The translations under genes were made by a program, and so were the position numbers. A model generated the notes under the pieces. It had not been told where the DNA came from and did not search any database. It saw only the letters and a list, made by a program, of their open reading frames with translations. From positions 2,432,001 through 2,496,000 of the forward strand of contig CBDCXM010000009.1 of assembly GCA_965223855.1 (NCBI GenBank): a stretch of 64,000 nucleotides of DNA, in the 5' to 3' direction. Source of the stretch: Candidatus Multivoradales bacterium. Lineage in GTDB: Bacteria; Acidobacteriota; Thermoanaerobaculia; Multivoradales; JAHEKO01. Position 1 is the first letter of the stretch. Every line of letters begins with the position of its first letter. Of the stretch, positions 11,048 through 53,497 are shown piece after piece.

Positions 11048-12336
11048 CGGTCGGGCCGGCGGGACCGTCGGGGCAGCGCCTCGGCGCCGACCACGACCGG
11101 CCAGGCCGACACGGTTCCGGTCTCGAAGCCGTCGTCGAAGATGGCGCTGATCGAGAAGACTGCGAGCGTGTTGGGGAAGAACCCGGTCACGTAGAGGTGT
11201 CGGGCATCCGGGGAGCTGCGGACATCCGCCGGTGACGAGATTCCCGTGACACCGTCGACCCCCTCGCAGGTCAGCTTCGCCAGCTCGAGGCGTCCTGCCG
11301 CGGCGTCGATGCGAACCGCAGCGATGGCCTGATGAATACCCAGCGTGGCGAAGAGAGTCCTGTCGCTCGTGAAGCCCAGCTTGGCTGCTGGATCGGCCGC
11401 GTTGGGGGTACAGCCTCCCTGGGAGGGCGGATTGGGCAACTCGGCGAGCAGCTTCAGATCGCCGGTGGTCGGGTCGCGTGCGAGGAGAGTCAGCCAGTCG
11501 AATCCTTCGAGGAACGTCTGACTCGCGGCCACCACGAAGTGGCCGTCCGGACTGACGGCTACATCGGTGACCAGGTCGAGCCAGCCCGAGCTTGCGACCG
11601 CGTCTCCGAACGCCAGCGAGCCATCGGCCCCGCGCGCGAAGTGAATCACGCTGTCGTCGAGTACCGAAGCGACGTAGAGCGAACTGCCGTCCGGGGAGAG
11701 GTTCAGCCCGAGCGGAGCAGAGAGCCCGGTCACCCCGTCGACGCCGTCGACGACCGCCTCGAGGTACGTCAGCCTTCCCGAGGCCGAGCGTTCGAAGACC
11801 GCCACGGCGGAATCGCTGAGACCGGCCACGTAGAGGTGCCGGTCGTCAGGCGAGAGCACCAGATCCCGAGCACCGTCGAGTCCGTCGACGCCCCCGATCC
11901 CGTCGATCAGGGTCTGGTCGAGTTGGAGCAGCCCGGTCGACGGGTCGCGCTGCCACACACTCACCTGGTCCGACTGTGCCGAGGCGGCGTAGATTTGCAG
12001 GCCGTCGGAGGACACGGCGAGAGCGGCGACCAGCGCCAACGACGTGTCGAACGCCCGCTGGACGAAGGTGAGCAGCCCGGTCGACGGGTCCCGCTCGAAC
12101 ACCACCAGGGAGCGGCCGCTGGTGGCGGCGACGACAACGTGCCGTCCGTCGGGAGTGACCGCGACCTCGATCGGCTGCTGCAGGCCGGTGATTCCCGACG
12201 TTCCGTCCTCGAGGACCTGCAGGAAGCGGAGTGCGGCAGAGCCGCTCGCCGGAGCCGCCGCAGCGAGCAGGAAGCCGAGCAGCAGCGCAGGGACGAGGCG
12301 GCGGAGACCGTATCGGGCACGAGTGGGCGGGAGCAT
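11044..12336 (-). CDS. Secreted lactonase-type beta-propeller protein with IFDDGFETG..W tag near the C-terminus
   Basis: Signal peptide; repeated SPDGRHLYVA..DSAVAVFERD..TG.L blades and DGVDGVTGL repeats. Confidence 0.8.
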   Translation of the reverse strand: MLPPTRARYGLRRLVPALLLGFLLAAAAPASGSAALRFLQVLEDGTSGITGLQQPIEVAVTPDGRHVVVAATSGRSLVVFERDPSTGLLTFVQRAFDTSLALVAALAVSSDGLQIYAASAQSDQVSVWQRDPSTGLLQLDQTLIDGIGGVDGLDGARDLVLSPDDRHLYVAGLSDSAVAVFERSASGRLTYLEAVVDGVDGVTGLSAPLGLNLSPDGSSLYVASVLDDSVIHFARGADGSLAFGDAVASSGWLDLVTDVAVSPDGHFVVAASQTFLEGFDWLTLLARDPTTGDLKLLAELPNPPSQGGCTPNAADPAAKLGFTSDRTLFATLGIHQAIAAVRIDAAAGRLELAKLTCEGVDGVTGISSPADVRSSPDARHLYVTGFFPNTLAVFSISAIFDDGFETGTVSAWPVVVGAEALPRRSRRPDR

Positions 12337-12473
12337 GGTGGAGCAGATTCAGAGTCCGAGCCGGATCGCGAGGACTCTCCGGGTGAGTGCCTGCTGCGAG
12401 GCGAGAGGTTCAGAAGCTGGCGGTGCTCTCGGAGCAGCGACTATGCTGCTGCGAAACGTCGAGGGAGGTTGCC

Positions 12474-13325: not shown

Positions 13326-13588
13326 GCGGCGAGACGGTTCCACCTGGTGGGTGACGGCGCATAGGCCGTCGAGTGGCCGGCTTGCTCGCTTGCCGAGGCC
13401 CGCAGCTTTGCCTTCGGCTTGTCCCGGTCGGGCCGGAGGAGGCCGTTGACCGGTTGCCGCCTTCGCGCATACCGATCGATCGCCTGGCCCGATAGCGGCC
13501 GGCTCACCGTTCTACTTTACAGAGCAACCTGTCGCGATACGCCCAAGGCTGCTAGTCTTCATGAACCACTTACTGGAAAGGAAGTTCG

Positions 13589-15688
13589 ATGCGGCCGCGG
13601 GGTAACCGGCGGCTCGCCGTTGTGGCGTGCCTGTGTTGGGGATTTGCCTGGAGCGTGGAAGCCGACTCCAGGGGGAGTTCCAGGCAGGGGGTCTTCGACC
13701 GGGACGGCCAGGCGGTGACCTGGTATGACGGCAGCTACGCGCTGCTCATCGGAGTCAGCGAGTACCGCCACTGGCCGGACCTCGACAGCATTCCCGGCGA
13801 ACTGAGGAAGTTGGCGGCCGCGCTCGAACGAAACGGCTTCGAGGTCTTCACTCATCTGGATCCGACCTCGGATGAGCTGCGGTCCGCCTATCGCGACTTC
13901 ATCAACGCCCACGGACGCCAACCGCATCACCGATTGGTGCTCTTCTTTTCCGGGCACGGCTACACACGAGAAGCCACCGTAGGAAGACTGGGCTACATCG
14001 TTCCCTCGGATGCGCCGAGGCCCGAGGACGATCTCGACGGATTCCTCGCCGCCGCCATGTCGATGGAGGAGGTTTCGACGCTCAGCACCGGTTTCGATGC
14101 GAAGCATGCTCTCTTCGCATTCGACAGTTGCTTTTCCGGCTCGATCTTCGGCTCGCGAGCCGTCAGCCGCCCTCGGTACATCGACAAGAAGACCTCCAAG
14201 CCGGTTCGGATGTTCATCGCCGCCGGCAACGCAGATCAGGAGGTGCCGGCGCAAAGTGTCTTCACGCCGCTCCTTTCCCAGGGTCTGGAAGGGGCCGCCG
14301 ACCTCGACTCGGACGGCTACGTCACCGGCGAGGAGCTCGGGTACTACCTCAACACGCAGGTGAACGGTCGCGACGACATAGATCAGACGCCGCAGTGGGG
14401 CAAGAGCAACCATCCGGCTTTCAAAGAGGGCGACTTCGTTTTTCAGGTGACTCGCGAGCGTCTGACCGCCCAGGCCGCTCAGGTTCGCCTCGCTCGTCAT
14501 CTCGGTGACGTGATCACCCCTGATCTTCTGACCGGCATCGTGGACGCGTTGGCTCCCGAGCACTCCGGACCGCGCCAGGATCAGCTCCTCGATCGGATCG
14601 GGAGGCTGTCGAACGACCGGCGGAGTCAGATGGAGGTGGCTCGCTTCTACGGGCGTCATCGCGAGGAGATCCTGCGCGTCGTTGCGTCCACGCGTTCGTC
14701 GGCGAGTTCGGAGCGCTCCACCGGCTCGAGTTCCCAGTACGAGCGTTCTCGCCTCCGTCGCTCGAGAATCGCGCCCGATGCGCCCGCCACGACGGCGTCG
14801 CCGCTCGCCATCGACCCGGTGCTCCGGGCCGAGAAGGAGATCGCGAGCCTTCCGGCGGGCCGGCGGGGGCAGGCTGTCGCCGACCTCGTCCGCCAGATCC
14901 TCCCCGACCTTGCGCCGGCGGACCTGCGATCGGTAGGGGTTCTCGTCTGGGCGCTAGGGAGGTTCGGCAGCGAGGCGCTGGGGACGTCGGCGGCGATCGC
15001 TCTGGAGTCGGAGTTGCTGGCGCCGCTGCGCGAGACGAGGCCTCCCGGCGGCCTCGAAGGTTGGGTAGCGGTGCCGGGTGGCACCTTCGTCATGGGAGGC
15101 GGCTACTCAGGGCAGCGTGAACGCGAGGTCGAGGTCAGCGGATTCTGCATCCTCGACCACGAGGTCACGAACGACGAGTTCCGTCGACTCGTCCCTCACC
15201 ACGCGGGCGAGGCAGATTTGCCGGCTGTCGGCGTCACCTGGTACCAGGCCCGCGCATACGCCGCGTGGTTGGGAGGGCGGCTGCCGACCGAGGCCGAGTG
15301 GGAGTACGCAGCCCGAGGGGGCTGTGCCGCCCGCTTCTGCGACGCCGCCGGAGCCGAGGTGCACCCCCGAGAGATCGCCTGGTACCGGGACAATGCACGA
15401 GGCTCCCTGCACCCGGTGAGGCAGTTGGAGCCAAGCCCGAGGGGGCTCTACGACATGCTCGGCAACGCCGCCGAGTGGGTCGAAGACTTCCATGGCGAGT
15501 ATCCGACCGAGACTCGTCGCGACCCCGTGGGGGCCGCGAGCGGTGGCGAGCGCGTGGTCCGCGGCGGGTCGTATGTCGACTCGGCCGTTGACCTGATGCC
15601 CGAGAACCGGAGCGGCAGCACCGATGCGAGGTACTACCTCGGCTTCAGGGTGGTGATCCCAGGAAGGGAGACGTGTGGTGCGTTGTAG
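13589..15688 (+). CDS. Secreted caspase-like (peptidase C14) protein with C-terminal FGE/SUMF1-like domain
   Basis: YALLIGVSEY, FFSGHG (His), FDSCFSG (Cys), SVFT..L..GL.GAADLDSDGYVT..EL, QTPQWG; then VPGGTFVMG, HEVTN, RLPTEAEWEYAARG, GLYDMLGNAAEWV, RVVRGGS, LGFRV. Confidence 0.9.
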   Translation: MRPRGNRRLAVVACLCWGFAWSVEADSRGSSRQGVFDRDGQAVTWYDGSYALLIGVSEYRHWPDLDSIPGELRKLAAALERNGFEVFTHLDPTSDELRSAYRDFINAHGRQPHHRLVLFFSGHGYTREATVGRLGYIVPSDAPRPEDDLDGFLAAAMSMEEVSTLSTGFDAKHALFAFDSCFSGSIFGSRAVSRPRYIDKKTSKPVRMFIAAGNADQEVPAQSVFTPLLSQGLEGAADLDSDGYVTGEELGYYLNTQVNGRDDIDQTPQWGKSNHPAFKEGDFVFQVTRERLTAQAAQVRLARHLGDVITPDLLTGIVDALAPEHSGPRQDQLLDRIGRLSNDRRSQMEVARFYGRHREEILRVVASTRSSASSERSTGSSSQYERSRLRRSRIAPDAPATTASPLAIDPVLRAEKEIASLPAGRRGQAVADLVRQILPDLAPADLRSVGVLVWALGRFGSEALGTSAAIALESELLAPLRETRPPGGLEGWVAVPGGTFVMGGGYSGQREREVEVSGFCILDHEVTNDEFRRLVPHHAGEADLPAVGVTWYQARAYAAWLGGRLPTEAEWEYAARGGCAARFCDAAGAEVHPREIAWYRDNARGSLHPVRQLEPSPRGLYDMLGNAAEWVEDFHGEYPTETRRDPVGAASGGERVVRGGSYVDSAVDLMPENRSGSTDARYYLGFRVVIPGRETCGAL

Positions 15689-15758
15689 AGACGGCATGCC
15701 CTCGGACGGCCCGGGCCGTTCGGGGAGCCAGGTTCCAGCCCGACAGGAGGTCGAAGAT

Positions 15759-19171: not shown

Positions 19172-20656
19172 ATGGCACAACGCTGCAGGTGGGGTGCTGG
19201 TGCCGGCGGCGGTTGGGGGGCTCTTGCTGGCGCGTTGCTGTGCTGCCTGATCGCTGCTGCGTCGACAGCCGGCCGGTCGTCCGCCGACCGGTCGCCCGCC
19301 GGAGAGGGGCGCCCCAACTTCGTCCTCCTCATGACCGACGATCAGGCGTGGGACGCGGTGGGGCTGCTCGATCCCCTGGTGGACACACCGAACCTGGATC
19401 TCCTGGCCGCCTCCGGCGCACGGTTCGAGAATGCCTTCGTCTCGACCTCGATCTGCCCGGCGAGCCGGGCTTCGATCCTCACGGGGCTCTACTTTCCGGC
19501 CCACGGCTACACCTTCGACCAGCCTCCGCTGACGACTGCCGATCTCGCCGTGACGTGGCCGGCGCTGCTGCGAGCGAGTGGTTACCGGGTGGCGCTCATC
19601 GGCAAGAACGGCCTCGGCCTCGACGACCCGGCGCTCGACCAGCTCTTCGACGAATGGGAGACCTATCCTCGCGAGTACTTCCTCGACGACGGAGGTCGGG
19701 AGGTCCATCTCACCGATCTCCTCGCCGAGAAGGCGAGCGGGTTTGTCGCCCGCCAGGATGCCGATCAGCCGTTCGCACTCATCGTCTGGTTCCACGCCCC
19801 GCACGCTGTCGGAGGCTTTGCTGCCGAGCCGTTCGTGCCGCCGCGGCGCTACGAATCGCTCTACGACGGGATCGTCTTTCCTCGTCGGCCCGGTTCGAGC
19901 CCGGAGCAGTGGTTCGACCGCCCCGGCTTCTTCGACCGGGGGCTCAACCGCCAGCGGCGCGACCTGTGGTGGAGCGACGGGCGGTACCAGCACAACTCGC
20001 GCCGCTACCACGCCATGGTCCGTGGTGTCGACGATGCGGTCGGTGCCGTGATGAGCTCTCTGGCGAAGCACGGTCTCGCGGGCGACACGGTCATGATCTT
20101 CACCTCGGACAACGGCTTCTACCGCGGTGAGCGCCTCTTCGGCGGCAAATGGCTGGGGCACGACCCATCGAGCCGGGTACCCCTGTACGTCCGGCTCGCA
20201 CCTTCGAAGCCCCGCGTCTTCGACGAGCTCGTAGTCAACGTCGATCTGGCGCCGACGATCCTCGAACTGGCGGGCGAGGCCGCTCCGAGTGCCATGCAGG
20301 GGAGGAGCCTCGTGCCGCTGATGGTCGACGAGGAGGCGTCGTGGCGCGAGGACCTCTTCCTCGAACACAGCTACTCGCCGGCCGGGATGCCCGGGATTCC
20401 GCGCTTCTTCGGTGTCAGAAGTGAGCTGTGGAAGTACCTCTACTTCCCCGACCACGGGTACGAGGAGCTCTTCGACCTCCGCTCCGATCCTGCCGAGCTC
20501 CGCGACCTCGCGGGCGATCCGGACTTCGAGGAGGTTCGCCGGGAACTGCGCAGACGGGCGGAAGAGCTGCGCTTCGAACTCGGCGGTGACATCTTCCAGG
20601 ACGGATTCGAGGCGGGGGATACCTCGAGCTGGACAACGGTCGTACCAAGGCCGTGA
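19172..20656 (+). CDS. Secreted sulfatase with C-terminal IFQDGFEAGDTSSW tag
   Basis: RPNFVLLMTDD, TPNLD, CPASRASILTG, IGK, HAPH, IFTSDNG, GKW, NVDLAPT, ELFDL..DP.E. Confidence 0.92.
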   Translation: MAQRCRWGAGAGGGWGALAGALLCCLIAAASTAGRSSADRSPAGEGRPNFVLLMTDDQAWDAVGLLDPLVDTPNLDLLAASGARFENAFVSTSICPASRASILTGLYFPAHGYTFDQPPLTTADLAVTWPALLRASGYRVALIGKNGLGLDDPALDQLFDEWETYPREYFLDDGGREVHLTDLLAEKASGFVARQDADQPFALIVWFHAPHAVGGFAAEPFVPPRRYESLYDGIVFPRRPGSSPEQWFDRPGFFDRGLNRQRRDLWWSDGRYQHNSRRYHAMVRGVDDAVGAVMSSLAKHGLAGDTVMIFTSDNGFYRGERLFGGKWLGHDPSSRVPLYVRLAPSKPRVFDELVVNVDLAPTILELAGEAAPSAMQGRSLVPLMVDEEASWREDLFLEHSYSPAGMPGIPRFFGVRSELWKYLYFPDHGYEELFDLRSDPAELRDLAGDPDFEEVRRELRRRAEELRFELGGDIFQDGFEAGDTSSWTTVVPRP

Positions 20657-22045: not shown

Positions 22046-22861
22046 ATGCCACGCTTCCTTCATCTCACGACCGCCTGGGCCGTGGTGACGCTTCTCTTCA
22101 CCGGGCCAGGGCGACTCTTGGCTTCGGGCGCGGGGCCGAGCCTCCTGGTCTTCACCCGGACGGAGGGCTTCGACCATCCGTCGATCGTGGACGGCGTCAC
22201 GATGTTCGTGGAGTTGGCGGCGGCCCACGGTTTCACGGTTTCGGTGACCGACGAGACCGGTGAGTTCACCGACACGGGACTCGGCGCCTACGACGTCGTC
22301 GTCTGGCTTTCGACGACGGGGGACGTTCTCGACCCTCCCGAGGAGGCGGCGTTTCGCGCCTTCATCGAGCAGGGAGGCGGCTATCTGGGGATTCATGCGG
22401 CGGCCGATTGCGAGTACGGGTGGCCCTGGTACGGCGAGGAGATCCTCGGCAACGGAGCGTGGTTCGACTCGCATCCCGCGATTCAGGAGGCTCGCCTGCT
22501 GCTCGAGGGGGACGGCTCGCCGGCCCCGGGGAGTTGGGAGGGGGACACGCTCTTCACCGACGAGTGGTACAACTTCCGAGCCAATCCTCGAGACGTGGTC
22601 CAGGTGGTGCAGACGCTCGATGAGAGTTCCTACTCGGGGGGCAACATGGGCCCCGATCATCCGATCGCCTGGGCGCGCACCGTCCTGCTCGGGAGGGTCT
22701 TCTACACCGGCCTGGGCCATCGCTCGGAGACCTTCGCCGATCCGCGGTTCCGGGCGCAGATCGTCGATGCCGTCGGCTGGCTCAGCGGCGCAGGGTCGAG
22801 CATCTTCTCCGACGGCTTTGAAAGCGGTGACACCTCGGCCTGGGGCGCGACGACTCCCTGA
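22046..22861 (+). CDS. Secreted ThuA-domain (class I GATase-like) protein with C-terminal IFSDGFESGDTSAW tag
   Basis: LLVFTRTEGFDHPSI, STTGDVL, GGGYLGIHAAAD, DEWYNF, DHPIAW, GRVFYTGLGH. Confidence 0.9.
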   Translation: MPRFLHLTTAWAVVTLLFTGPGRLLASGAGPSLLVFTRTEGFDHPSIVDGVTMFVELAAAHGFTVSVTDETGEFTDTGLGAYDVVVWLSTTGDVLDPPEEAAFRAFIEQGGGYLGIHAAADCEYGWPWYGEEILGNGAWFDSHPAIQEARLLLEGDGSPAPGSWEGDTLFTDEWYNFRANPRDVVQVVQTLDESSYSGGNMGPDHPIAWARTVLLGRVFYTGLGHRSETFADPRFRAQIVDAVGWLSGAGSSIFSDGFESGDTSAWGATTP

Positions 22862-22930: not shown

Positions 22931-24190
22931 ATGATCTCGATGAAGCCGACAGGAAGACTCCTCGTTTCACTCCTCGTCGCGGCGACCGCTGCCGCCGCCT
23001 CCGAGCCCGCTCCGAGCCTCTTCACGCCGGTGGAAGGCCCCCTGGATCCGTCGTTGGCGAGCGTGGAGAGTCGACGAATCGCCGTCGAAGCAGCACTGCT
23101 GACGCCTGATCTCGACGAGGTGAGACTCGATCTGCCGGGTGTGGGGCCGGTCTTCGCCCGCCTGACGTCGTTCGAGGATCGGGGTGCCGGAGGGGTGACC
23201 TGGAGGGGCGTGCTGGCAGGAGAGGACGGAGGAGGGGTCACCCTCACCTCCCGACGCGGCTTCGTCGCGGGACTGGTGACCGGGCCGGTGGGAGTGTGGG
23301 AGATCCGAACGCTCGCCGACGGAGGGCAGGCGGTGGATCGGATCGACCAGGCGAGGTACCCCGTCTGTGGAACGCCGCAGCCGGCCCAGCCGGTTCCTTT
23401 TCTCGGCGACGTCGATCCCTGTCCTGCTCCGGTCGATCCGGTCGGCCAGGTCGATGTCCTGAGCCTCTACACGCCGCAGGCCCGCGACGCTTCGGGAGGC
23501 GTGCCGCAGATCGAGGCGCTGATCCAGGCGGCGGTCGACAACACCAACACCGCATTCCTCAACTCGGAGATGCCGATCCGCTTCCGTCTCGTCGGCACCG
23601 CGCTCGCCGATCACGACGACAGCGGCAACATCAGTACCGACCTCAACTGGCTGCGGAACGATTCGGAGGCGGCGGCTCTGAGGGACAGCGTTCGAGCGGA
23701 CCTGGTGTCGCTCATCACCCAGGACGGGGGCGGCTTCTGCGGCCTCGGCCAGCTGCCGCTCACCTGGGGGGCGGGGGGCAATCCGAACTCCGTCTTCCAG
23801 GTGACGGCGAGGGGTTGCGCCGTGGGGAATCTCTCCTACGCCCATGAGCACGGTCACAACATGGGGCTCGAGCACAACCCGCAGAACGCCAACCCCCCCG
23901 GGGCGGGCAGCTACCCCTACCGTTTCGGCCACTACGTCAACGGCTCCTACCGGACGGTGATGTCCTACTCGAGCCAGTGCACCAGCGGCTGTACGAGGGT
24001 GACGCAGTGGTCGAACCCCGAAGTCGTCTTCCTCGGCGAGCCGACCGGGCTCGAGGACCAGCGCGACAACCGGCGGGCGTCCGGGCTGACCGACGGTTGT
24101 GTGACCGACTACCGGCTCTCCGACCCGGCGATCTTCTCCGACGGCTTCGAGTCGGGCGACACCTCGGCCTGGTCGACTTCGCTGCCCTGA
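22931..24190 (+). CDS. Secreted M12/reprolysin-like (peptidyl-Asp type) metallopeptidase with C-terminal IFSDGFESGDTSAW tag
   Basis: HEHGHNMGLEH zinc motif, Met-turn RTVMSY, WSNP, prodomain with Cys; signal peptide (start 22931 or 22940). Confidence 0.9.
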   Translation: MISMKPTGRLLVSLLVAATAAAASEPAPSLFTPVEGPLDPSLASVESRRIAVEAALLTPDLDEVRLDLPGVGPVFARLTSFEDRGAGGVTWRGVLAGEDGGGVTLTSRRGFVAGLVTGPVGVWEIRTLADGGQAVDRIDQARYPVCGTPQPAQPVPFLGDVDPCPAPVDPVGQVDVLSLYTPQARDASGGVPQIEALIQAAVDNTNTAFLNSEMPIRFRLVGTALADHDDSGNISTDLNWLRNDSEAAALRDSVRADLVSLITQDGGGFCGLGQLPLTWGAGGNPNSVFQVTARGCAVGNLSYAHEHGHNMGLEHNPQNANPPGAGSYPYRFGHYVNGSYRTVMSYSSQCTSGCTRVTQWSNPEVVFLGEPTGLEDQRDNRRASGLTDGCVTDYRLSDPAIFSDGFESGDTSAWSTSLP

Positions 24191-24296: not shown

Positions 24297-24902
24297 ATGG
24301 ACACTCTCGAACCCCGAACGTCCGATTCCTCCGAAGCCGGCGGAGCCAGCCGGGATCCCGGCGCTGGAGGCGAGGCCTCCGCGCCGGCGCGCTCGCTGGC
24401 GGCTCTCTACGAGGAGCACGCCCGCAATGTTCTGGCGGCCGCCTTCCGTGTTACCGGAAGTCGCCAGGATGCGGAAGATGTGCTGCAGACGGTCTTCCTC
24501 AGGCTTTCGCGTCGTTGGGACGGCCTCGAGCTGAGGGACTCCGTCGGCGGCTACCTGCACCGCGCCGCCGTCAACGGTTCGCTCGATCTGCTGCGCTCGC
24601 GTTCGCGAGCCGGCTCGGTGCCCCTCGACGACCTGGTCGTGGAGCTGCCCGAGACCGGCGAAGCGTCGGCCGAGCGGCAGCTCGAGGGACGGGAGTTCCG
24701 TCGCCGGCTGCGACAGGCACTCGTACGGTTGTCGGACAAGGCGGCGAGAGTCTTCGCGTTGCGGTACTTCGAAGGGCTCGGCAACACCGAGATCGCGACG
24801 ATGCTCGGGATGCCGAGGGTCTCGGTCGCGGTGACGCTGCACCGGGCGCGCAAACAACTACAGGTCGAACTGGCGCAGTTCGCTGAAGGTGAGGTCTCAT
24901 GA
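24297..24902 (+). CDS. ECF RNA polymerase sigma factor
   Basis: Region 2 DAEDVLQTVFLRL..YLHRAAVNGSLDLLR; region 4 VFALRYFEGLGNTEIATMLG..VAVTLHRARKQL. Confidence 0.93.
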   Translation: MDTLEPRTSDSSEAGGASRDPGAGGEASAPARSLAALYEEHARNVLAAAFRVTGSRQDAEDVLQTVFLRLSRRWDGLELRDSVGGYLHRAAVNGSLDLLRSRSRAGSVPLDDLVVELPETGEASAERQLEGREFRRRLRQALVRLSDKAARVFALRYFEGLGNTEIATMLGMPRVSVAVTLHRARKQLQVELAQFAEGEVS

Positions 24903-27598
24903 TGAACAGGAAGCCGACGATGAAAGAGCAGATGGATCTGGCAGCGAGTCAGATTCGCGCGAGCGAACTCGCGGAAGAGGACGTGCGCGAGATCACCCGA
25001 AGGGTGTGGCAACGGGTCGAGGATGGTTCGGCCGAGACCGTCGAGGCGGCACAGGTCGAGACGATCCGCGGTTGCGACGACTATCAGCGGCTCATCCCCG
25101 CTTTCGTGAACGGCAGCCTCTCGCCTTCCCGGGCGCTGCTGCTCGAGGACCACGCGCGTCAGTGCGTCCCCTGCCGTCGGGCGCTCTCCGGCGCCCGTTC
25201 GGGGGGTGCCGCCTCGGGCGGCCGCTCCGCGGCGAACGATCGGTCCCGGCGAGCGCCTCGAACGCGCTGGCTCGCGGCGGCGGCCGTCGCCGTCGTCGCC
25301 CTCGGCAGCGGGCTGCTGCTCTGGCGTTCCGGTTCGGCCCTGCCCTACGGTGCGATCGTCGAATCGACCGGTGCGGGGCTCTATCGCGCCGCGTCCCTCG
25401 AGCCGGTCGCCGTGGGCGATGAGCTGGCGGTCGGTGAGCGGCTCCGCAGCGGGCCGGGTGAGAGTTCGTTCCTGCGTCTGGCCGACGGTTCGAGAGTCGA
25501 GGTCCGAGGGCGCTCGGAGCTCTCCGTCGAAGCGCGACGTGGCACCACCGTGCGAGTCGAGCGCGGCGACGTGATCGTCGAAGCGGCGCCGCAGGGAGCG
25601 GGGAGGCTCTTCGTGTCGACCGCCGATTGTCTGGTGTCGGTGAAAGGGACGATCTTCGCCGTCAGCCGCGGGACTCGCGGCTCGCAGGTGGCGGTGATCG
25701 AGGGCGAAGTTCAGGTCGATCACGCGGGCCGCGAAGAGGTGCTCTACGCCGGCGATCGCACGGCGACGTACGCCGGTTTTTCGCACGGCCGTTTCGACGA
25801 GGCGTTCGAGTGGAGCCGCAACGTCGACAGCTACCTGGCGCTGCTCAAGGAGGTGACCGAGCTGCGGCAGGCGCTGGCACGCGACCTTCCTCGACCGGAA
25901 CTGCGTTACTCGAGTCGGCTGCTCGATCTGGCGCCCGACGGGATGGCCTTCTACGTCGCCCTGCCGAACTTCGCCGAGACGGTCAGCGAAGCGAACCGCA
26001 TCGTGCAGGAGCGGGTCGCCCAGAGCCCGGTGCTCAACGAGTGGTGGGCTTCGCGGCAGAGCGCCGAGGCGCGCACGCATCTCGCGACGGTCTCCGCCCT
26101 TCTCGCCGAGGTCGGCGGGTACCTCGGCGACGAGATCGTCGTCGCGGCGGCCGCCGGCCCGGAATCAGGGTCGAGCGGGAATCCGATGAAGGAAGGGCCT
26201 CTGGTGCTCGCCGAGCTGGTCGATGCGGCCTCGATGCGGCAGTTCGTCGAGGGGCTGGGCGTCGGTCACGAGGGCGCGGAAGGGGTGGTCTTCCTCGACG
26301 AGGACTCGCTGCTCGAAGAGGGCACGGCGGCGCGGGGCGGGTCCGGTCTCGTGATGTGGCTCGGCGACGACACCCTGATCGCCGCTCCTGATGCCGCAGT
26401 CGTGCGGGCTGCGGTAGCACGAATGGAGTCGACCTCGCGGCCGGTGCCTGAGGGCTTCAAGCGTCATCTGGCGGACGCCTATGCCGAGGGTGCCGAGATT
26501 CTGGTCGGCGCCGACCTTCACGCACTGATGGAGGTCGCCGGTCGCGACATCGGTGAGGAGCGCGAGGCTCTCGACCAGCTCGGATTGCTCGACGCGAGCC
26601 ATCTGATCCTGCAGCAGCGGCGCGTGGGCGAGCGCACGCAGAGCGACGCCGTGCTGGCGTTCGACGGACCCCGTCGTGGCCTGGCGGCGGCGCTTGCCGC
26701 GCCGGCGCCGATGGGCTCGCTCGCCTACGTCTCCCCGGACGCCAAGGTCGCGGCGGCGGCGATCCTCACCAGCCCGGCCGAGCTCTTCGACCGGATGCTG
26801 GCCCTCGCCGCACGAGACTCCGAAGCTGTGGCCGAGCTGCAGCGGATCGAGGCCGAACTCGGCGTCGACCTGCGCGACGACGTCGCGGCGGCGCTGGGAG
26901 GCGAACTGGCGGTCGCGCTCGACGGCCCTCTGCTCCCGGAGCCGGCCTGGAAGGTCGTTGCCGAGGTCTACGATCCCGACAAGCTGGTCTGGGCGCTGCA
27001 GCAGCTCTTGGCGGCAGCCAACGACGAGCGGGCTGCTCGCGGCGAGGAGCCGATCGAGTGGCTCGAGGAGGAGGTCGGTGGCCGTCTCTACCACCGCGTC
27101 GCGGGAGATCGGACGTTCGAGATGACCTTCGACGAGGGATATCTGGTCGCCGGATCGAATCGCGGCGTCATCGAGCGCGCCATCCGCTTCCGGCAGTCGG
27201 GCTACTCGCTGACGACCTCGGCGCGCTTCTCGCGCCTGCTGCCGGCCGGCAGTCAGCCGAACTTCTCGGCTCTCTTCTACCAGGACGCTCTGGAGCTCCT
27301 GAAGCCGCTGGCCGACCGCATCGCCACGGGCGGGCTCACCGACGAGCAGGCTGCGGCGATCGAAGAGCTGCGGCAGAGCACCGAGCCGACGCTGGCCTAC
27401 GCTATCGGTGAAGACGATCGCATCGTGTTCGCCGTCGACGGGGTAGCGGACCTGCTGGCGGCCGGGATTCCGGCCCTTCTGGGATTCGGCGATCTCGGCG
27501 CCTTCGGCGTCGCCCTCGACGATGCCGAGACGGGAGCGAGCACAAGCGTGGAGGCGCGAGCGGGGCAGGGTGGAACCCTGGCTCGTCCGGCGGCGTAG
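24899..27598 (+). CDS. Large anti-sigma factor: ZAS zinc motif, TM helix, FecR domain and large DUF3352-like periplasmic domain
   Basis: HARQCVPC (HxxxCxxC); one TM; [27 protein letters not shown]; about 550 aa C-terminal alpha/beta region; ATGA overlap with the sigma gene. Confidence 0.8.
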
Positions 27599-27605
27599 AG
27601 AAGGC

Positions 27606-28520
27606 ATGGCCCCGGTCCTCGAGCTCGAAGACCTGACCGTCCGGTTCGGTCGCCTGGAGGCGCTGTCGCACCTGAGCGGCAGCTTCTCCGCTCGGGCGTT
27701 GGGACTCCTCGGTCCAAACGGGGCCGGCAAGACGACGCTGATTCACACCCTGCTCGGCTTCCACTCCCCGGCCGGCGGCTCGGCGAAGCTGCTCGGGCAC
27801 GATGTCGCGACACAGGCACACCGGACCCGGTCGCTCATCGGCTACATGCCGGAGCGCGACAGCTTCATCGAGGGGATGAGTGCCGTTCGCCTGGTGAGGA
27901 TGATGGGGGAGCTCTCCGGCCTGCCGAGGGCCGCGGCGCTCGAGCGGGCCCACGAGGCGCTCTACTGCGTCGGCCTCGGGGAAGCTCGTTATCGCAACCT
28001 CGAAACCTATTCGCTCGGCATGAAGCAACGCGCGAAGCTGGCGCAGGCGATGGTTCACGGCCCGCGGCTGCTGTTTCTCGACGAGCCGACGAACGGCCTC
28101 GACCCGCCGGCGCGCGAGCAGATGGTGCGGCTGATTCGCGAGATCCGCGACAGTGGGGACGTGAGGATCGTCCTGTCGTCGCACCTGCTGCGGGACGTCG
28201 AAGAGTGCTGTGACGAGGTGCTGATCCTCAAGCAGGGACGGGTCGCCCACCACTGCAGTCTGGAGGCCGAGCGGCGCGAGAACCGCAAGTTCCTGCAGGT
28301 CCAGATCCGCGGAGACCGGGAGAGCTTCGTCGAGCGATTGACCGGCCTCGGATGCGAGTGTGCGATCGACGACAAGCAGCGGATCCGGCTGGTACTGCCG
28401 CCGCAGGTCGAGGTGCGAGCGCTCTATGAGACCGCCGGCTCGATCGGGGCGCAGATCCGTCACCTCGACTACAAGCGCGACTCGCTGCAGGACATTTTCC
28501 TGCAGGCGATGGAGAACTGA
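27606..28520 (+). CDS. ABC transporter ATP-binding protein
   Basis: [30 protein letters not shown]. Confidence 0.95.
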
Positions 28521-29403
28521 TGGCGGTGTACCAGCGAAGCTTCGAGCCCTGGAAGGGACCGCAGACTGCGGCGCGCTGGCGCTTTCTCGTGCCGGCTCGC
28601 TACGCTCTCGAGGATCTCTTCCGGTCGAAGCTCTTCCTCGTCTTCTTCACGTTCTGTTTCGTCCTTCCGCTGCTGGCTACGGCGGCGATCTACCTGCGGC
28701 ACAACACCGACTTCGTGGCGTTCCTGACCGCCGGCGGTGAGAACGTCGACGAGTGGATACCGATCGACGAGCTGTTCTTCGGCTTCTTCATGCGCGTCCA
28801 GGGGACGCTCGCCTTCCTGCTCGTCGTCTTCTCGGGGCCGCGGCTGGTGTCGCGCGACCTCGCGAACAACGGTCTCGCGCTCTATCTGTGCCGGCCGTTC
28901 AGCAAGACGCAGTATGTCGCCGCCAAGGCGACGGTGATCGCCGTTCTGCTCTCCGCGATCACCTGGATCCCGGGGCTCCTTCTCTGGGGCCTTCAGGTCG
29001 CCCTGGAAGGGTTCGGCTGGGCGGGCGAACACTGGCGCTCGGCGGTCGCGCTGGTGGTCGGCTCCTGGACCTGGATCGCGGTGCTGGCGCTGCTGTCGCT
29101 GGCGATCTCGGCGTGGGTGAAGTGGCGGCCTGTGGCAGGTTTCGTGCTGCTGCTGATCTACTTCGGCGGCTTCTTCTTCGCCCAGATCGTCTCCGCGCTC
29201 TTCCACACCGACGTGGGGCACCTGCTCGATCTGCATCACAACATCCGACGCGTCTGGACACAGCTCTTCGACACCTCCGCCCCGTTCTTCTTCACTCTCC
29301 CCGCCGGGGTGTCACCGGGCGCGGCCTGGGCGGCGCTCTTCGCGTTGGTGCTGGTAGCGACCTGGATGCTGGCGCGACGGATCCGCGCCTACGAGGTGGT
29401 GTC

Positions 29404-29407
<4 letters not shown>
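28520..29407 (+). CDS. ABC-2 type permease
   Basis: About 6 TM; [23 protein letters not shown]; translationally coupled to the ATPase gene. Confidence 0.85.
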
Positions 29408-30401
<994 letters not shown>

Positions 30402-30405
<4 letters not shown>

Positions 30406-31249: not shown

Positions 31250-32260
31250 TCAGCGCGCGTCAGGGCAGTCCGTCACCCAGTGCTCGGCGCCGAGCACGAG
31301 GTCCTGCCCGTCGAAGAACTCCTCGACCAGGTCACCGCTCTCGTAGCGGTTGCAGCAGAACTCCGACGGCGCAGGCGGTGCCGCAGCGTTGGCGATCAGC
31401 ATGTGCTGGCCGCTCGCCTCGAAGGCGGGGGAGAAGACGTTGTTGCGAATGGTGCAACGGGTCGCCTGACCGCCGCAGCGCAGGGTGTAGTGCCCCCACC
31501 GTTCGAAGTAGTTGTCTTCGATCAGGAGATCGACCTCGGAGTGGTTGGTGCCGAAGACGATGTCTGTGCGGCCGATGTCGGGGTTGTCGGGGTCGATGTA
31601 GTTGCCGCGTATCCGGACGTGGCCGCCGGCGAAGGTCGCCTCGCCGATCTGGAAGCCGTCGGCGTGCGAGGACGGCGTGCCGACCAGGGTGTGCATGTAG
31701 TTCTCCGAGATGACGACGCCGGAGAGGTCTCCCTGAATGAAGAAGAAGTCCTCGCAGCCGACGATTTCGTTGCGGTGGACCTGCGCCCGAGGTGCGCCGC
31801 TCTCGAAGTAGAACGCCTTGCTGGTCGAGGAGCAGTCGATGCGGCTGTACTCGAGTACGAAGTCGCGACTCCCCCCTTCCACCTTGATCGGGTAGAGGCC
31901 GCCGCAGTCGATCTCCGTGTTGCGGATCACGACATCGTCGGCCGCGATCCGCAGACAGCCGTCGACGACGACGTTCTCGATCAGGGTCGGCGCGGTGATC
32001 GTCGAGGGGCCGGTGTAGGGCGTCGTCGGTGCCGGGCCGACCACCCCGACTCCCAGTGTCACCCCCGCGTCGGCGGGCACTACGTGGGCGTAGGGGGTTC
32101 GCGTCTCGACGCTCCAGCCGCTCGTGTCGCCGCTCTCGAAGCCGTCGGCGAAGATCAAGGTCGAACGACAGTCCTGGGCCCGGGCGCTCGACGCCGGGGC
32201 CACAGCGAGGAGCGACGCGACGATCCACGTGGTCGTTCGGGCACGAGTTCGGCAGGACAT
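31250..32260 (-). CDS. Secreted right-handed beta-helix (pectin-lyase-like) protein with N-terminal IFADGFESGDTSGW tag
   Basis: Signal peptide ending ARA-Q; beta-helix coils (VVIRNTEI, VHRNEIVG, VISENYMH, HADGFQI, IRGNYI, IEDNYF, IRNNVF). Confidence 0.75.
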   Translation of the reverse strand: MSCRTRARTTTWIVASLLAVAPASSARAQDCRSTLIFADGFESGDTSGWSVETRTPYAHVVPADAGVTLGVGVVGPAPTTPYTGPSTITAPTLIENVVVDGCLRIAADDVVIRNTEIDCGGLYPIKVEGGSRDFVLEYSRIDCSSTSKAFYFESGAPRAQVHRNEIVGCEDFFFIQGDLSGVVISENYMHTLVGTPSSHADGFQIGEATFAGGHVRIRGNYIDPDNPDIGRTDIVFGTNHSEVDLLIEDNYFERWGHYTLRCGGQATRCTIRNNVFSPAFEASGQHMLIANAAAPPAPSEFCCNRYESGDLVEEFFDGQDLVLGAEHWVTDCPDAR

Positions 32261-44865: not shown

Positions 44866-46317
44866 GTGATCTCCAACCGCGGAAAGCTCTGTGTCGTCGC
44901 CCTCATGTTCCATGGTGCCGCATCGCTGGGAGCGGCGCCGACTCCGCTCTCCGGCGATCTCGCCGCCGCGATCCGCAACGTACCGCCCGGCGGGAGTCTC
45001 GAGGTCACTGGAGTCGATCTCGAGGGACTCGGCGCGACCGCACTTCACCTGACCCGCTTCGAGGTCTTCGACGCGAAGGCGCGGCTGCTGGTGCGAGGAG
45101 TCGAGGAGGTGCGGGAGCTGCCGGTTCCCGGCAACCGTTACCTGCGTGGATGGGTCGACGGCGATCGCGCTTCGCTTGCCTATCTCTCGCTCAGCGAGGA
45201 CGGGGAGATCCGGGGGCTGGTCAGGGCGGGTGGCCGCTTCCACCTGATCGGGAACCGCGAGCGCGGAGTGGCTCTCGAAGCAGTCGAGGTGCGAGCCGTC
45301 GACGCCGCCTCCCTGGGGCGCGAGGCGAGCGAGTTCTCGTGCGCGACCGACTCGCTCACCGTGGAGCCGGGAGCGCTGTTGCGAGGTTTCGGCGCTGCCG
45401 CTCCCTCCGCACCCGCTCGAGCGACCGCGGGCGGCAGCTACACGGTCCGCCTGGGGATCGAGACGGACAACGAGTATCTGGCGCTCTTCGGTGGCAACAC
45501 CTTCGACGCGATCGACTACGCGGCCGACGTGATCGCCTTCGCGTCGACCCTCTACGACGCGGAGACCGCGACCGACTTTCGCATCATCGAGGTCTCGCTG
45601 TGGGAGGCACCGGACCCGTGGTTGGAGTCTGCCACCTTCTGCGGCCTCCTGGAGTTCGGGCGCTACTGGAACGACAACTACGGCGGCACGGTGGGGGGAG
45701 AGGTCTACTCGGCCGGCCACTTTTTCAGTGGCAAGAACAACGGCGGCGGCGTCGCCTGGGTCGGGGTGCTCTGTTCGGGAGCGTTCAACTACAACCACGA
45801 GGGCAACTGCTCGCTCTCGCCTGCGACCGACAACTATGGAGGACCCTACGGCTACAGCGGCGACCTCGACGGTAACTTCGACCTCGGCAACCCGCAGGTT
45901 GTGTGGGACGTCTACGTCGTCGCTCACGAGCTCGGCCACAACTTCGATTCGCCGCATACGCACTGCTACGCCGGCCTCCAGGGCAACCCGAACCCGATCG
46001 ACATGTGCTTCTCCGGCGAGGACGGCTGCTACGTCGGAGCGACCTCGCTGCCTTCCGGGTGCCCCGGATCAGGCTCCGCCTGCGGCACGGTGATGAGCTA
46101 CTGCAATCAGATGGCCGGAGGGATCGGCAACATCGGGTTCAGCCTGGGCACGGGCCATCCCTACGGCGTGGCGCCGGGCCGGGTGCCGACCCAGATGGGC
46201 GATCACCTGGCGGTCGTCTCTTCGGCGAACCCCGCCTGCCTGGCGCGGGCTGCCGAGATCTTCAGCGACGGCTTCGAGAGCGGCGACACGCTCAGCTGGT
46301 CGGTGACCATCCCGTGA
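44866..46317 (+). CDS. Secreted M12/reprolysin-like metallopeptidase with C-terminal IFSDGFESGDTLSW tag
   Basis: GGAGG + GTG; signal peptide; IETDNEY, GGVAWVGVLC, HELGHNFDSPHTH, GTVMSYC. Confidence 0.9.
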   Translation: MISNRGKLCVVALMFHGAASLGAAPTPLSGDLAAAIRNVPPGGSLEVTGVDLEGLGATALHLTRFEVFDAKARLLVRGVEEVRELPVPGNRYLRGWVDGDRASLAYLSLSEDGEIRGLVRAGGRFHLIGNRERGVALEAVEVRAVDAASLGREASEFSCATDSLTVEPGALLRGFGAAAPSAPARATAGGSYTVRLGIETDNEYLALFGGNTFDAIDYAADVIAFASTLYDAETATDFRIIEVSLWEAPDPWLESATFCGLLEFGRYWNDNYGGTVGGEVYSAGHFFSGKNNGGGVAWVGVLCSGAFNYNHEGNCSLSPATDNYGGPYGYSGDLDGNFDLGNPQVVWDVYVVAHELGHNFDSPHTHCYAGLQGNPNPIDMCFSGEDGCYVGATSLPSGCPGSGSACGTVMSYCNQMAGGIGNIGFSLGTGHPYGVAPGRVPTQMGDHLAVVSSANPACLARAAEIFSDGFESGDTLSWSVTIP

Positions 46318-48824: not shown

Positions 48825-48940
48825 CCCAGCCAGCGCCGCATGCGCCCAGGGGGTGCAGCCACGCCGGCCGTCGGGAGTGGGCCGCTCCGGGCGATGTCGA
48901 GCGTGAGAGGGAAGGGCTAGAGTAGGAGGGACTCCGACCC

Positions 48941-50358: not shown

Positions 50359-50432
50359 TCTCCCCTCGCTCGGCTTCCGGGTCTGCGCCGCCGCTCTGAC
50401 ACAATCGGCGCCGTCCGGAGCGGAGGAGTGCG

Positions 50433-51758
50433 ATGATGAAGAAGAGAGGCTTGCGGGCGCTGACCTGCGTCGTCGTCGCGTCGGTCTGGTGGCCGGCGAT
50501 GGAGGCGGATGGCCAGGAGGCGCGGCGCCGCTGGGAGCGGATGAACCAGATCCGCGCCGAGAAGTTCGACCGTGTGTTGCCCGAGGCGATGCGCGAGAAC
50601 GGCGTCGACATGTGGATCACCATGATCCGCGAGGCCAACTACGGCAATCTGTGGCCGGACTTCGGGTTCGGCTACGCCTCGACCGACGGGTACTACGTCT
50701 TTACCGACCGGGGGGGAGACCGGATCGAGCGCGCGGCGCTGGGCATCAGCGGCTACATGATCGAGCAAAGCGGCGCCTACGATCTGTTTCTGGGCGCCGA
50801 CGCCCTGGCCGACTTCGTTGCCGAGCGGGATCCACAGACCATCGCGCTCAACATGAGCCGCGCGATCGGACCGCTCGACACCCTGTCCCACACCGGTTTC
50901 GAGCAGATCGTCGAGACCCTGGGCGAGCCCTGGGCATCGCGGATCGTCTCTGCCGAGAAGCTCGCTTCGGACTTCCGGTCGCGTCGCGTCGCCAGCGAAG
51001 TCGCTGCCTTCGCCGAGGCCGGTGAGATCTCGCGCGAACTCGCCGAGCGAGCGTTGTCGAACGAGGTCATCGAGCCCGGCGTGACCCGCCTCGAGGAGGT
51101 CGCGTGGTGGCTCCGGGACCGGCTCCTCGAGCGCGGCCTCGACTCCTCGTTCGGCATGCCGTCGATCTACGTCACCGGCCCGGACGGCATCGTCGCGATC
51201 TCCGACTCGACGGTTCTCCAGCGGGGAGACGTCGTGATGATCGACTGGGGTGTCGGCTTCCTGAACCTCTACACCGACATGAAGCGGATCGCCTATCTGC
51301 TTCAGGAGGGGGAGACCGAGGCCCCCGACTCGATTCAGCACGCCTTCGACCGCGCCCGGGAGGCGCGATCGGTCGTCAAGGGCGCGATTCGAGCCGGTGT
51401 CACCGCCGGCGAAGCCGAGGAAGCCGTCTACGCGGCGCTCGAAGCGGCCGGATTCGTGCGGATCGACTTCAACCAGCCGACGGAGGATCCGGCGACGACC
51501 GATGTCGTCATCGGCTGCCATTCGGTCGGCAATTCGGGCCACGGGAGCGGCCCGTCGGTCGCCTTCTTCAACCCGGTGAGACGTGGCTACATGCTGCATC
51601 CGACGAATCTGCTGTCGATCGAGCTCTTCGCCTACACGGCGATCCCCGAGTGGGGGGGCAGGAAGCTGCGCGTCCCGCTGGAGGACGACGCCGTGCTCAC
51701 GCAGCGGGGGATGGAGTGGCTCTATCCCGCGAACGATCGCATCCTGCTGGTGCGATGA
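50433..51758 (+). CDS. Secreted M24 (Xaa-Pro) metallopeptidase
   Basis: Pita-bread ligand pattern IDWG, TDMKR, HSVG..GH, IELF, LEDD; signal peptide. Confidence 0.85.
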   Translation: MMKKRGLRALTCVVVASVWWPAMEADGQEARRRWERMNQIRAEKFDRVLPEAMRENGVDMWITMIREANYGNLWPDFGFGYASTDGYYVFTDRGGDRIERAALGISGYMIEQSGAYDLFLGADALADFVAERDPQTIALNMSRAIGPLDTLSHTGFEQIVETLGEPWASRIVSAEKLASDFRSRRVASEVAAFAEAGEISRELAERALSNEVIEPGVTRLEEVAWWLRDRLLERGLDSSFGMPSIYVTGPDGIVAISDSTVLQRGDVVMIDWGVGFLNLYTDMKRIAYLLQEGETEAPDSIQHAFDRAREARSVVKGAIRAGVTAGEAEEAVYAALEAAGFVRIDFNQPTEDPATTDVVIGCHSVGNSGHGSGPSVAFFNPVRRGYMLHPTNLLSIELFAYTAIPEWGGRKLRVPLEDDAVLTQRGMEWLYPANDRILLVR

Positions 51759-53497
51759 CGGCGCAGGCGGCGACCAGGCGGCGCGTCGCTGCCGGTACCG
51801 GGCCGACTCTCCCGGCGTTGCTGCTGCTGACACTGATGTCGTCGGTGAGCTCCGCTGAAACGGAGGCGCCGACGCTGCGCGACGACGGCCCGTGGGTGGT
51901 TCGGATCGCCGACTGGACCGAGTCGGGACTCGAAGGGGTGCGGGCCCGTTTCGATCACATCGGCGTCGACGCCGCGACGGGCGCCCTGCGCTTCGTCGTC
52001 GACAGGGCGCTGGATCGTGATCTGCTGCTCGCCACCGGCTGGACGCTCGAGCTCGAACTCGAGGAGACCGAGCGACTCCGCTGGATCGAAGCTCAGTTCG
52101 CCGCCGGCCACTCGCTGCGCCAGATCCCGGGGTTCGAGTGCTACCGCACGGTCGAGGAGACGCTAGCGACCGGAGCGCAGCTCGCGCTCGACTACCCGGA
52201 TCTCGCGACCTGGACCGATCTCGGTGACAGTTGGGAGAAGCAGTTTCCCGGGCACGGCGGCCCCGGCTACGACCTGATGGTGCTGAAACTGACCCAGGCC
52301 GCCGTGGCGGGGCCGAAGCCCGACCTGATGCTCGTCGGCGCGCTGCATGCCCGTGAGTACGCGACGGCGGAACTCGTGACGCGCTTCGCGGAGGCGCTCG
52401 TGGCGGGGTACGGCGTCGATCCCGACCTGACCTGGATCCTCGACCACCACGAGATTCATCTCGTGCTGCAGGCGAACCCCGACGGGCGCAAGCGGGCGGA
52501 GAGCGGTCTCTCGTGGCGTAAGAACGCCAACGACGACTTCTGCAGCGGCACGAACGATCGGGGTATCGACCTGAACCGCAACTTCGACTTTCAGTGGGGA
52601 TGCTGTGGCGGCTCGAGCGGCGATCCGTGTCAGATCACCTTCCGCGGACCGTCGGCACGCTCCGAGCCCGAGGCGATCGTGCTGATGGACTACATGGACT
52701 CGATCTTCGCCGACCAGCGGCCGGACGATCTGACGACCCCCGCTCCGCCGGACGCCGAGGGCATCTACATCGACGTGCACTCGTTCGGCGAGGTTTTCCT
52801 GTCCTCCTGGGGCTTCACGACGGCCGATCCTCCCAACGCCGCCGCATTGCTGACCCTCGGTCGCAAGTACTCGTTCTTCCCCGCCTACACGGCTGTACTC
52901 GGCAGCCTCGGCACGGTCGACGGAGCCACCAAGGACTACGCGTACGGTCGGCTCGGTGTGCCGGGCTACACCGCGGAGCTGGGGACGAGCTTCTTCCAGG
53001 ACTGCACGACCTTCGAGAACGAGATCGTTCCCGGCAATCTGCCGGCGCTGACCCAGATCGCCAAGAGCGTCCGAGCTCCCTACACGATCCCCTCCGGCCC
53101 AGACGCGATCGATCCGCAGGTCACCGTCACTCCTGACGGCCTGACGGCGACGGTCACCGCGACGATCGACGACACCCGCTACAGCACTCCCTCCGAGCCC
53201 CGGCAGCCGATCGATACTGCCGAGCTCTACCTCGACGCTCCGCCGTGGGACGGCGGGCTGCCGATGACGATGTCTCCGGCCGACGGAGGGTTCGACGAGA
53301 CGATCGAGCCGGTCGAGCTGACGGTGGACCTCACCGGTGTCGGCTCCGGCCGTCACCTCGTCTACCTCCGCGGCCGCGATGCGGCCGGCAACTGGGGGGC
53401 GTTCAGCGCCCGTTTCGTGGACATCGACTCGCAGCCCGTCTTTGCCGACGGATTCGAGTCGGGTGACACCTCCGCCTGGTCGGCGACGGTACCGTGA
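51755..53497 (+). CDS. Secreted M14 zinc carboxypeptidase with Ig-like domain and C-terminal VFADGFESGDTSAW tag
   Basis: HARE, NPDGR, WRKN, GIDLNRNF, SEPE, DVHSF, YTAELG; ATGA overlap. Confidence 0.92.
   Translation: MTAQAATRRRVAAGTGPTLPALLLLTLMSSVSSAETEAPTLRDDGPWVVRIADWTESGLEGVRARFDHIGVDAATGALRFVVDRALDRDLLLATGWTLELELEETERLRWIEAQFAAGHSLRQIPGFECYRTVEETLATGAQLALDYPDLATWTDLGDSWEKQFPGHGGPGYDLMVLKLTQAAVAGPKPDLMLVGALHAREYATAELVTRFAEALVAGYGVDPDLTWILDHHEIHLVLQANPDGRKRAESGLSWRKNANDDFCSGTNDRGIDLNRNFDFQWGCCGGSSGDPCQITFRGPSARSEPEAIVLMDYMDSIFADQRPDDLTTPAPPDAEGIYIDVHSFGEVFLSSWGFTTADPPNAAALLTLGRKYSFFPAYTAVLGSLGTVDGATKDYAYGRLGVPGYTAELGTSFFQDCTTFENEIVPGNLPALTQIAKSVRAPYTIPSGPDAIDPQVTVTPDGLTATVTATIDDTRYSTPSEPRQPIDTAELYLDAPPWDGGLPMTMSPADGGFDETIEPVELTVDLTGVGSGRHLVYLRGRDAAGNWGAFSARFVDIDSQPVFADGFESGDTSAWSATVP

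Follow-up and report, generated by a model that had tools for sequence, protein, structure and literature searches.

We analysed a 64,000-nucleotide stretch of the genome of a Candidatus Multivoradales bacterium (Acidobacteriota, Thermoanaerobaculia; assembly GCA_965223855.1, contig CBDCXM010000009.1, positions 2,432,001 to 2,496,000), here called the window, and in particular a short peptide tag, [IV]F.DGFE.G...W, that is shared by seven exported proteins of diverse folds encoded there. The tag is homologous to a segment that precedes a C-terminal domain, named X below, in proteins of related bacteria, and the genome of the window also encodes a secreted X that lacks this segment. The two halves of this split architecture co-occur across genomes, and a model of their complex is supported by its scores. 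The best explanation is that the tag is the detached N-terminal strand segment of X, a concanavalin A (ConA)-like jelly-roll domain of the lectin or polysaccharide lyase kind. We think it probable that the tag is the donor part of a lectin-like domain that has been split, and that it docks many exported enzymes on a shared strand-deficient X.

The first-pass annotation of the window had listed seven copies of the motif in proteins of diverse folds. Six-frame translation showed DGFE seven times, each time inside [IV]F.DGFE.G...W and at the positions listed, and the carriers were assigned to the Pfam families Lactonase, Sulfatase, ThuA, Reprolysin (twice), Beta_helix and Peptidase_M14. Five of the window tags are exactly C-terminal, with 16 residues from the Asp to the stop. 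The sulfatase tag has 18 residues from the Asp to the stop, two more than the exactly terminal form, and the lactonase tag has 29. In the beta-helix carrier the tag is N-terminal and follows immediately after the signal peptide, and this copy shows that the tag is independent of position. It had also been predicted that the BNR gene cut at position 1 of the window would end in the tag. Indeed, this carrier ends in ...EIFADGFESGDTSVWSNTIP, 704 bases outside the window, before its start. Other exported proteins encoded within the window have no tag. The carriers are the following:

1..1695, minus strand: N-terminal part of a BNR/sortilin-like carrier; the whole gene lies at G000:C9:2431296-2433746
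11044..12336, minus strand: lactonase-type beta-propeller carrier; variant tag IFDDGFETGTVSAW at 11101-11142, then 18 residues
19172..20656, plus strand: Cys-type sulfatase carrier; tag IFQDGFEAGDTSSWTTVVPRP at 20591-20653, then the stop
22046..22861, plus strand: ThuA-family carrier; terminal tag at 22802-22858
22940..24190, plus strand: M12 (reprolysin-like) metalloprotease carrier; terminal tag at 24131-24187
31250..32260, minus strand: beta-helix carrier; N-terminal tag at 32114-32155
44866..46317, plus strand: second M12 metalloprotease carrier; terminal tag at 46258-46314
51755..53497, plus strand: M14 carboxypeptidase carrier; terminal tag at 53438-53494

Genome-wide, the tag is far more frequent than the seven window copies had shown. 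In the assembly containing the window (G000; 4.52 Mb in 9 contigs) we found 85 open reading frames (ORFs) with the motif, of which 78 carry it exactly at the C-terminus, again with 16 residues from the Asp to the stop. Two of the 85 carriers have an N-terminal tag, and in the remaining non-terminal ones 18-45 residues follow the Asp. A reversed-pattern control gave 0 matches in the same genome, versus 85 on the forward and reverse strands with the pattern itself. The conserved block runs from position -3 to +15 (19 residues), [IVL]-F-x-D-G-F-E-S-G-D-T-S-A-W-S-x-T-[VIL]-P, with ten positions invariant or nearly so and no conservation upstream. When the tag was removed, the 85 carrier bodies fell into 62 unrelated BLASTP clusters. 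Among their Pfam types were proteases (S8, M36, M28 and trypsin-like), further hydrolases (GDSL lipases and GH5/39 glycosidases), propellers (GSDH, FG-GAP and BNR), and also cytochrome c peroxidases, CHRD, DUF11 and beta-helices; for 32 of the 78 carriers encoded outside the window no Pfam match was obtained at E<=1e-5. A hydrophobic N-terminal signal-like segment was seen in 80 of the 85 carriers by a crude hydropathy scan (not SignalP), and one of the other five has a Tat-like signal. A lipobox was found in none of the 85.

All 85 of the 57-nucleotide stretches coding for the tag differ from each other, and the codons for the Ser at +4 belong either to the AGY (36 times) or to the TCN family (40 times). 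Selection therefore acts on the peptide, which agrees with the conservation at the protein level that had been claimed for the seven window copies. No Pfam or NCBIfam model touches the tag, whether the carriers were searched whole or as isolated tails of 24-32 residues. The literature, searched by motif strings and by topic with supplements lying outside the search, gave no description of it. The tag is thus real, abundant, and undescribed in the family libraries and literature searched. It had been considered that the tag might fold as an integral strand of each carrier's own domain. In an AlphaFold2 (AF2) model of one propeller carrier, however, the body was confident and the tag had a predicted local distance difference test score (pLDDT) below 50 and formed no strand. 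Together with the pLDDT of the tail when it was modelled with an unrelated chain, which dropped to 26 (control chain 1), this places the tail outside the carrier's own fold.

The tag is also found in other genomes. A strict DNA pattern undercounted diverged tags and was replaced by a relaxed one. The sample obtained with the strict pattern comprised at least 125 loci, and titles were seen for 80 of them; among the titles listed, most were metagenome-assembled genomes (MAGs) labelled Thermoanaerobaculia, Acidobacteriota or Holophagae, with single matches in contigs labelled Kangiella, Polyangiaceae and Deltaproteobacteria. Of the 125 loci listed, 75 have the 16-residue form and most others end within 19 residues. 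With the relaxed pattern, the distribution in 41 relatives was bimodal: 21 genomes had 11-123 matches, 12 had none and eight had 1-7. The reversed control gave 0 matches in each of them.

In two tag-poor relatives (G022 and G015) the motif is internal and precedes a C-terminal domain of 190-260 residues, which is domain X. A survey of the neighbourhoods of tags in tag-poor genomes found no partner neighbour gene, and it was from this survey that the motif was recognised as preceding X there. A GSDH-family carrier of G000 shares 50% identity over 385 residues with a GSDH-X protein of G022, and the alignment of the two extends through the motif; the carrier of G000 then stops and the protein of G022 continues into X. 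When X was used in a tblastn search of G000, one gene was found (C9:733682-734308, minus strand; E 9e-8), located about 1.7 Mb from the window, and a profile search confirmed it as the only X in this genome. Its product, P0001, has 208 residues and a Sec signal peptide, and the gene has a good Shine-Dalgarno sequence. The X domain of P0001 begins just past the site where fused forms have the motif segment. As shown by the alignment of the two forms (A1), the signal peptides of stand-alone X proteins occupy the columns in which fused forms have the motif.

A word-based homologue search with P0001 gave just four close relatives, and a profile of the stand-alone forms was used instead. Searched against 1.84 billion proteins, it returned 3083 representatives at E<=0.001, of which the best 150 were examined; the following counts refer to these. 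There were 35 stand-alone proteins of 202-233 residues, all led by a signal peptide, and none of the 35 had the N-terminal motif. One protein of 277 residues, P0154, is not led by a signal peptide and has the motif. Among 114 longer proteins, 92 contained the relaxed motif, and in the examples checked it was located about 12-20 residues ahead of a copy of X.

To what fold X belongs was seen from an AF2 model of the fused form, which is all-beta (pLDDT 84.5, predicted template modelling score 0.82) and in which the Trp segment of the motif forms a strand. Foldseek matched this model to 254 PDB chains at E<=0.001, with PL36, PL7 and PL20 lyases on top and lectin-like subdomains and a sialidase lectin among the further matches; for instance, 6kcw was matched with E 5e-6 and TMq 0.61, and 2zzj was matched as well. 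By AF2 and Foldseek, X has the two-sheet jelly-roll of ConA-like lectins and glucanases. In the ESM Atlas, the related clusters are named 'hypothetical protein' and are commonest in Acidobacteriota and Pseudomonadota, and a neighbouring one is named LamG-like jellyroll. No Pfam family reached its cutoff on X, and none of 38 stand-alone members had a meaningful match. The best scores for PF14099 / PF21340 were 25.7-27.2 bits versus a cutoff of 29.9, in three of 16 members (P0044, P0068 and P0027), and a fourth member, P0056, reached 19.8 bits. A weak CBM_4_9 match lay over the motif region (E 0.023), and a sequence search of the PDB with X gave nothing (best E 0.25).

An X was called strand-less if the ORF was short and the columns of the signal peptide were covered by the profile match (query start <=12), or if we had inspected its sequence. 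Among the 41 relatives, strand-less X was present in 19 of the 21 tag-rich genomes (11-123 matches) and in none of the 12 with zero matches. Among 151 genomes of the class, each at least 90% complete, it was present in 17 of 17 tag-rich genomes (at least 10 matches; 12 genera), in three of nine with 1-7 matches and in one of 125 with zero matches. The two samples share 12 genomes, so that their counts cannot be added, and the kinship among the genomes means that all these counts overstate the statistical weight. The pattern of tag plus strand-less X recurs in at least two orders and is patchy inside families. Fused X alone was found in a genome with zero matches (G007) and in the tag-poor genomes G015, G020 and G022.

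The complex of tag and X was then modelled from mature P0001 (38 stand-alone forms aligned) and the last 36 carrier residues (78 tails aligned), the first row of the tail alignment being the last 36 residues of the M14 carboxypeptidase carrier. The co-fold reached ipSAE values of 0.93, 0.92 and 0.92, and the best of three controls reached 0.01. At least 89% of the contacts were common to the runs, and the partner pLDDT was at least 76. In the model, I-F-x-D of the tag (tail residues 18-21) lies against the last strand of X (residues 202-208), W-S-x-T (tail residues 31-34) lies against X residues 53-58, and the Phe of DGFE contacts X residues 31, 41-43 and 202.

In some relatives X carries an anchor. 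A strand-less X is joined to SLH domains (PF00395, E 5e-12 to 1e-11) in three genomes, two of one family (G032 and G169) and one of another order (G155), and in G068 it is followed by Dockerin_1. An X with SLH or dockerin looks as a cell-wall-anchored receptor would. The extension past X in G104 appeared SLH-like by eye and had no Pfam match, and was not counted. In most genomes, G000 included, X has no anchor, and many copies of X end in a short extension resembling F-x-S-F-R-T-L-A-P.

The gene of P0001 is surrounded by a glycosyltransferase family 2 (GT2) gene, three sulfatase-family genes and large genes for membrane proteins that have no Pfam match. The three sulfatase-family genes flanking X (G000:C9:728451-737243; locus L222, 2451-11243, outside the window) end in ...E-A-L-G-Y-L(-N), and at least two of their products have a lipobox-like signal peptide. 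In 11 of 19 genomes, sulfatase-family genes ending in ...A-L-G-Y-[LV]-x lie no more than 6 kb from strand-less X, and an ending of the form [AS/EVT]-[LI]-G-Y-[LVIT] plus 0-3 residues is shared by 21 of the 22 ORFs of this kind. This L-G-Y ending looks like a second conserved C-terminal motif.

On the whole, the data favour docking by strand complementation. After export, the tag would complete the strand-deficient X in trans, with I-F-x-D pairing with the C-terminal strand of X, W-S-x-T pairing with the strand at 53-58 and the Phe of DGFE filling a pocket in the core. Every tagged enzyme would then dock non-covalently on one receptor module. We infer from the model that tag and X bind each other in the cell; where the complex sits and what X binds can only be guessed at. 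In three relatives the SLH domains of X would hold the complex at the cell wall, and in G000, with an X that has no anchor, the lectin-like fold itself may supply the targeting. In a broader form of this idea, to which we lean slightly, a split jelly-roll has given rise to a natural tag-and-catcher system acting across the proteome. The strand-deficient secreted X, SLH-anchored in some lineages, would capture its carriers by strand complementation, about 2% of the genes of G000 would encode exported carriers of the first strands of X only, and the system would be one that recurs across several orders of Thermoanaerobaculia and may also exist in Pseudomonadota.

Several points weigh against docking on X. 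The main contrary fact is G035, a genome that is 97% complete and has 123 tag matches, in which a search for strand-less X gave, even at E<=1, only a weak fused match; either its X was missed in the assembly or is too diverged to be detected, or another reader is used. In G004 (77% complete, 11 matches) no strand-less X was found as well. Conversely, G041 has a stand-alone X and zero tag matches, as the sole such genome among the zero-match genomes of the class, and in G068 X is present and the tag matched only once. In G000, as many as 85 ligand genes would depend on a single receptor gene, and the product of that gene, P0001, has no anchor. Nine of the 125 strict-pattern loci listed, all from other genomes, have tags that end right at the Trp and are therefore without the second strand. 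In the AF2 model of fused X the DGFESG loop has a pLDDT below 50, so that the position of the segment in cis lacks independent confirmation. The ipSAE mark was reached in calibration by 116 of 157 solved complexes and two of 215 mismatched pairs, counts that apply only roughly to our co-fold, which used its own alignments. Moreover, a co-fold of a split domain may simply rebuild a fold, and it is silent on affinity and on events in cells. Finally, the tag counts outside G000 are counts of a DNA pattern, and the position of the motif in the protein was checked for G000, for the 125 named loci and for 18 loci from tag-poor genomes.

These points have to be set beside other explanations of the tag. 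The first-pass annotation had proposed either a signal for export across the outer membrane or docking on a surface scaffold. The docking part is favoured by our results, since the tag is the segment that is absent from the secreted X, co-occurs with it and co-folds with it, and the export part is not, as none of our results points to a translocon. That the tag is a genuine signal for secretion or sorting, with a dedicated outer-membrane translocon or processing enzyme as its reader and X as a pilot, a chaperone or an unrelated protein, is in our view unlikely. This would fit the fixed length of the tag at the extreme C-terminus of 78 of the 85 carriers, the many kinds of exported carriers (mostly hydrolases and propellers) and the sulfatase-family lipoprotein genes with a conserved C-terminus of their own near X, which in 11 of 19 genomes lie within 6 kb and therefore put X in a conserved envelope locus. 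Such a signal is harder to reconcile with the N-terminal and internal copies and with a tag that has no transmembrane helix, basic tail or T9SS-type domain, and that instead matches a structural strand of a domain whose complement is encoded in the same genomes. A translocon candidate was not found by a search that was non-exhaustive.

The tags could also be non-functional stumps that remained after repeated loss of a C-terminal X, the stand-alone X being unrelated and never in need of a first strand. Homologues with a full X after the same motif do exist, the DGFESG loop of fused X is of low confidence, and G035 has many tags and no detectable X. We nevertheless regard stumps as highly improbable, given tags that stop at the same residue in 78 of 85 cases with ten positions (nearly) invariant, that are found on 62 unrelated bodies, and whose 85 coding sequences all differ and use Ser codons of both families. 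Neither the presence of strand-less X in 17 of 17 tag-rich versus one of 125 tag-free genomes nor the co-fold value of 0.92 versus 0.01 would be expected from them. Very unlikely, too, is a self-contained element acting without X, for example as a cap that binds metal, as a tail that protects against proteases or as a site of glycosylation. Acidic and hydroxyl residues abound in the motif (D, E, D, T, S), and a GT2 gene and large unannotated membrane-protein genes adjoin the X gene, as such an element might lead one to find. It leaves unexplained, however, why the stand-alone X always lacks exactly the tag segment (motif in 0 of 35) and why tag and X co-occur, and the tail alone was modelled as disordered (pLDDT 26 in the control and below 50 in the carrier).

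Docking on X by strand complementation has parallels in known systems. In chaperone-usher pili, type V pili of Bacteroidia and TasA-type fibres, subunits are joined by donor-strand complementation or exchange. As in these systems, a beta-sandwich that is short of a strand would be completed in trans by a short strand of another polypeptide, and the donor segment matches the missing strand in sequence. The co-fold model would put it in the place of that strand, against X residues 202-208 and 53-58, and the AF2 model of fused X was unsure of the DGFESG loop. The acceptor X lacks a strand that its complete homologues have (alignment A1; no N-terminal motif in the 35 stand-alone forms). In contrast to the Ig-like pilins of those systems, the acceptor here is a ConA-like jelly roll, the donors reside on about 85 unrelated enzymes instead of identical subunits, two short strands plus a loop would be donated, and no polymer, chaperone or usher is evident.

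The arrangement of many secreted enzymes that share one small terminal module and one non-covalent receptor module, with SLH anchors on some receptors, resembles the cohesin-dockerin pairs and SLH-anchored scaffoldins of cellulosomes. Dockerins fold into modules of about 70 residues, contain two calcium-binding repeats (PF00404) and bind to the surface of a complete cohesin. The tag, on the other hand, is only 19 residues long, is unfolded by itself and would, according to the model, join the fold of its receptor. Dockerin_1 had no match in the 85 carriers, and the only dockerin seen is the one on the receptor-like X of G068.

With the C-terminal sorting signals (LPXTG, PEP-CTERM, GlyGly-CTERM and the C-terminal domain (CTD) of the type IX secretion system (T9SS)), the tag has in common that it is a terminal element shared by unrelated exported folds and that it is expanded in certain lineages. 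Signals for sortases, exosortases, rhombosortases and archaeosortases consist of a short motif, a hydrophobic transmembrane helix and a basic cluster at the C-terminus, and the T9SS CTD is a folded beta-sandwich of 70-100 residues (PF18962 / TIGR04183 type). Here, 78 of the 85 carriers end five residues past the Trp and show no hydrophobic stretch, conservation spans 19 residues, and the tails have no Pfam or NCBIfam match; the NCBIfam CTERM models in particular matched neither the carriers nor the isolated tails. The first-pass annotation was thus right in placing the tag with no sortase, exosortase, rhombosortase or T9SS type, as it has no helix, basic cluster or CTD. Unlike these signals, the tag also occurs at N-terminal and internal positions, and the proposed reader would be a soluble incomplete domain instead of a membrane transpeptidase or translocon. 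As for X, it is like the ConA-like families (PL7, PL20, PL36, PF14099, PF21340, LamG-like and CBM4_9-type) in its fold by Foldseek and in its sub-threshold PF14099 matches, and differs from them in that it stays below every Pfam cutoff and has no sequence match to a solved structure.

If docking on X holds, covalent sorting and the cohesin-dockerin system would be joined by a third principle by which exoproteomes are organised, in which one small receptor gene provides a shared targeting module for dozens of enzymes. Such docking would account for a tag that is abundant in uncultured Acidobacteriota and yet has no annotation model, and would give a function to two sets of 'hypothetical' sequences, the stand-alone X family and the 19-residue tails. 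Tag and X would also be a natural, genetically encoded peptide-receptor pair.

Two further contexts of the motif were seen in other genomes. At loci L207 (G022), L209 and L212 (G015) the motif is sometimes followed by a conserved Lys-rich tail of 36-39 residues with a Cys, instead of X or a stop, and this tail is a third motif context in tag-poor relatives. At locus L058, on a MAG contig labelled Holophagae, a Gly/Pro stretch comes after one copy of the tag, and then a hydrophobic segment that resembles a helix; at this locus the motif precedes a possible membrane anchor.

Within the window, an ORF at 13589-15685 (plus strand), about 3.5 kb upstream of the tagged Cys-type sulfatase, encodes a caspase-like Peptidase_C14 domain together with an FGE-sulfatase (formylglycine-generating-enzyme-like) domain. 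The region 24480-31229 (plus strand), between two tagged genes, encodes an ECF sigma factor, an FecR/zf-HC2 anti-sigma-like protein of 871 residues and two ABC ATPase/permease pairs. At 5557-8457 (plus strand) lies an ORF of 967 residues with a TLC/MFS-type transporter region and HEAT/Armadillo repeats, and after it comes a gene for a small cNMP-binding protein.

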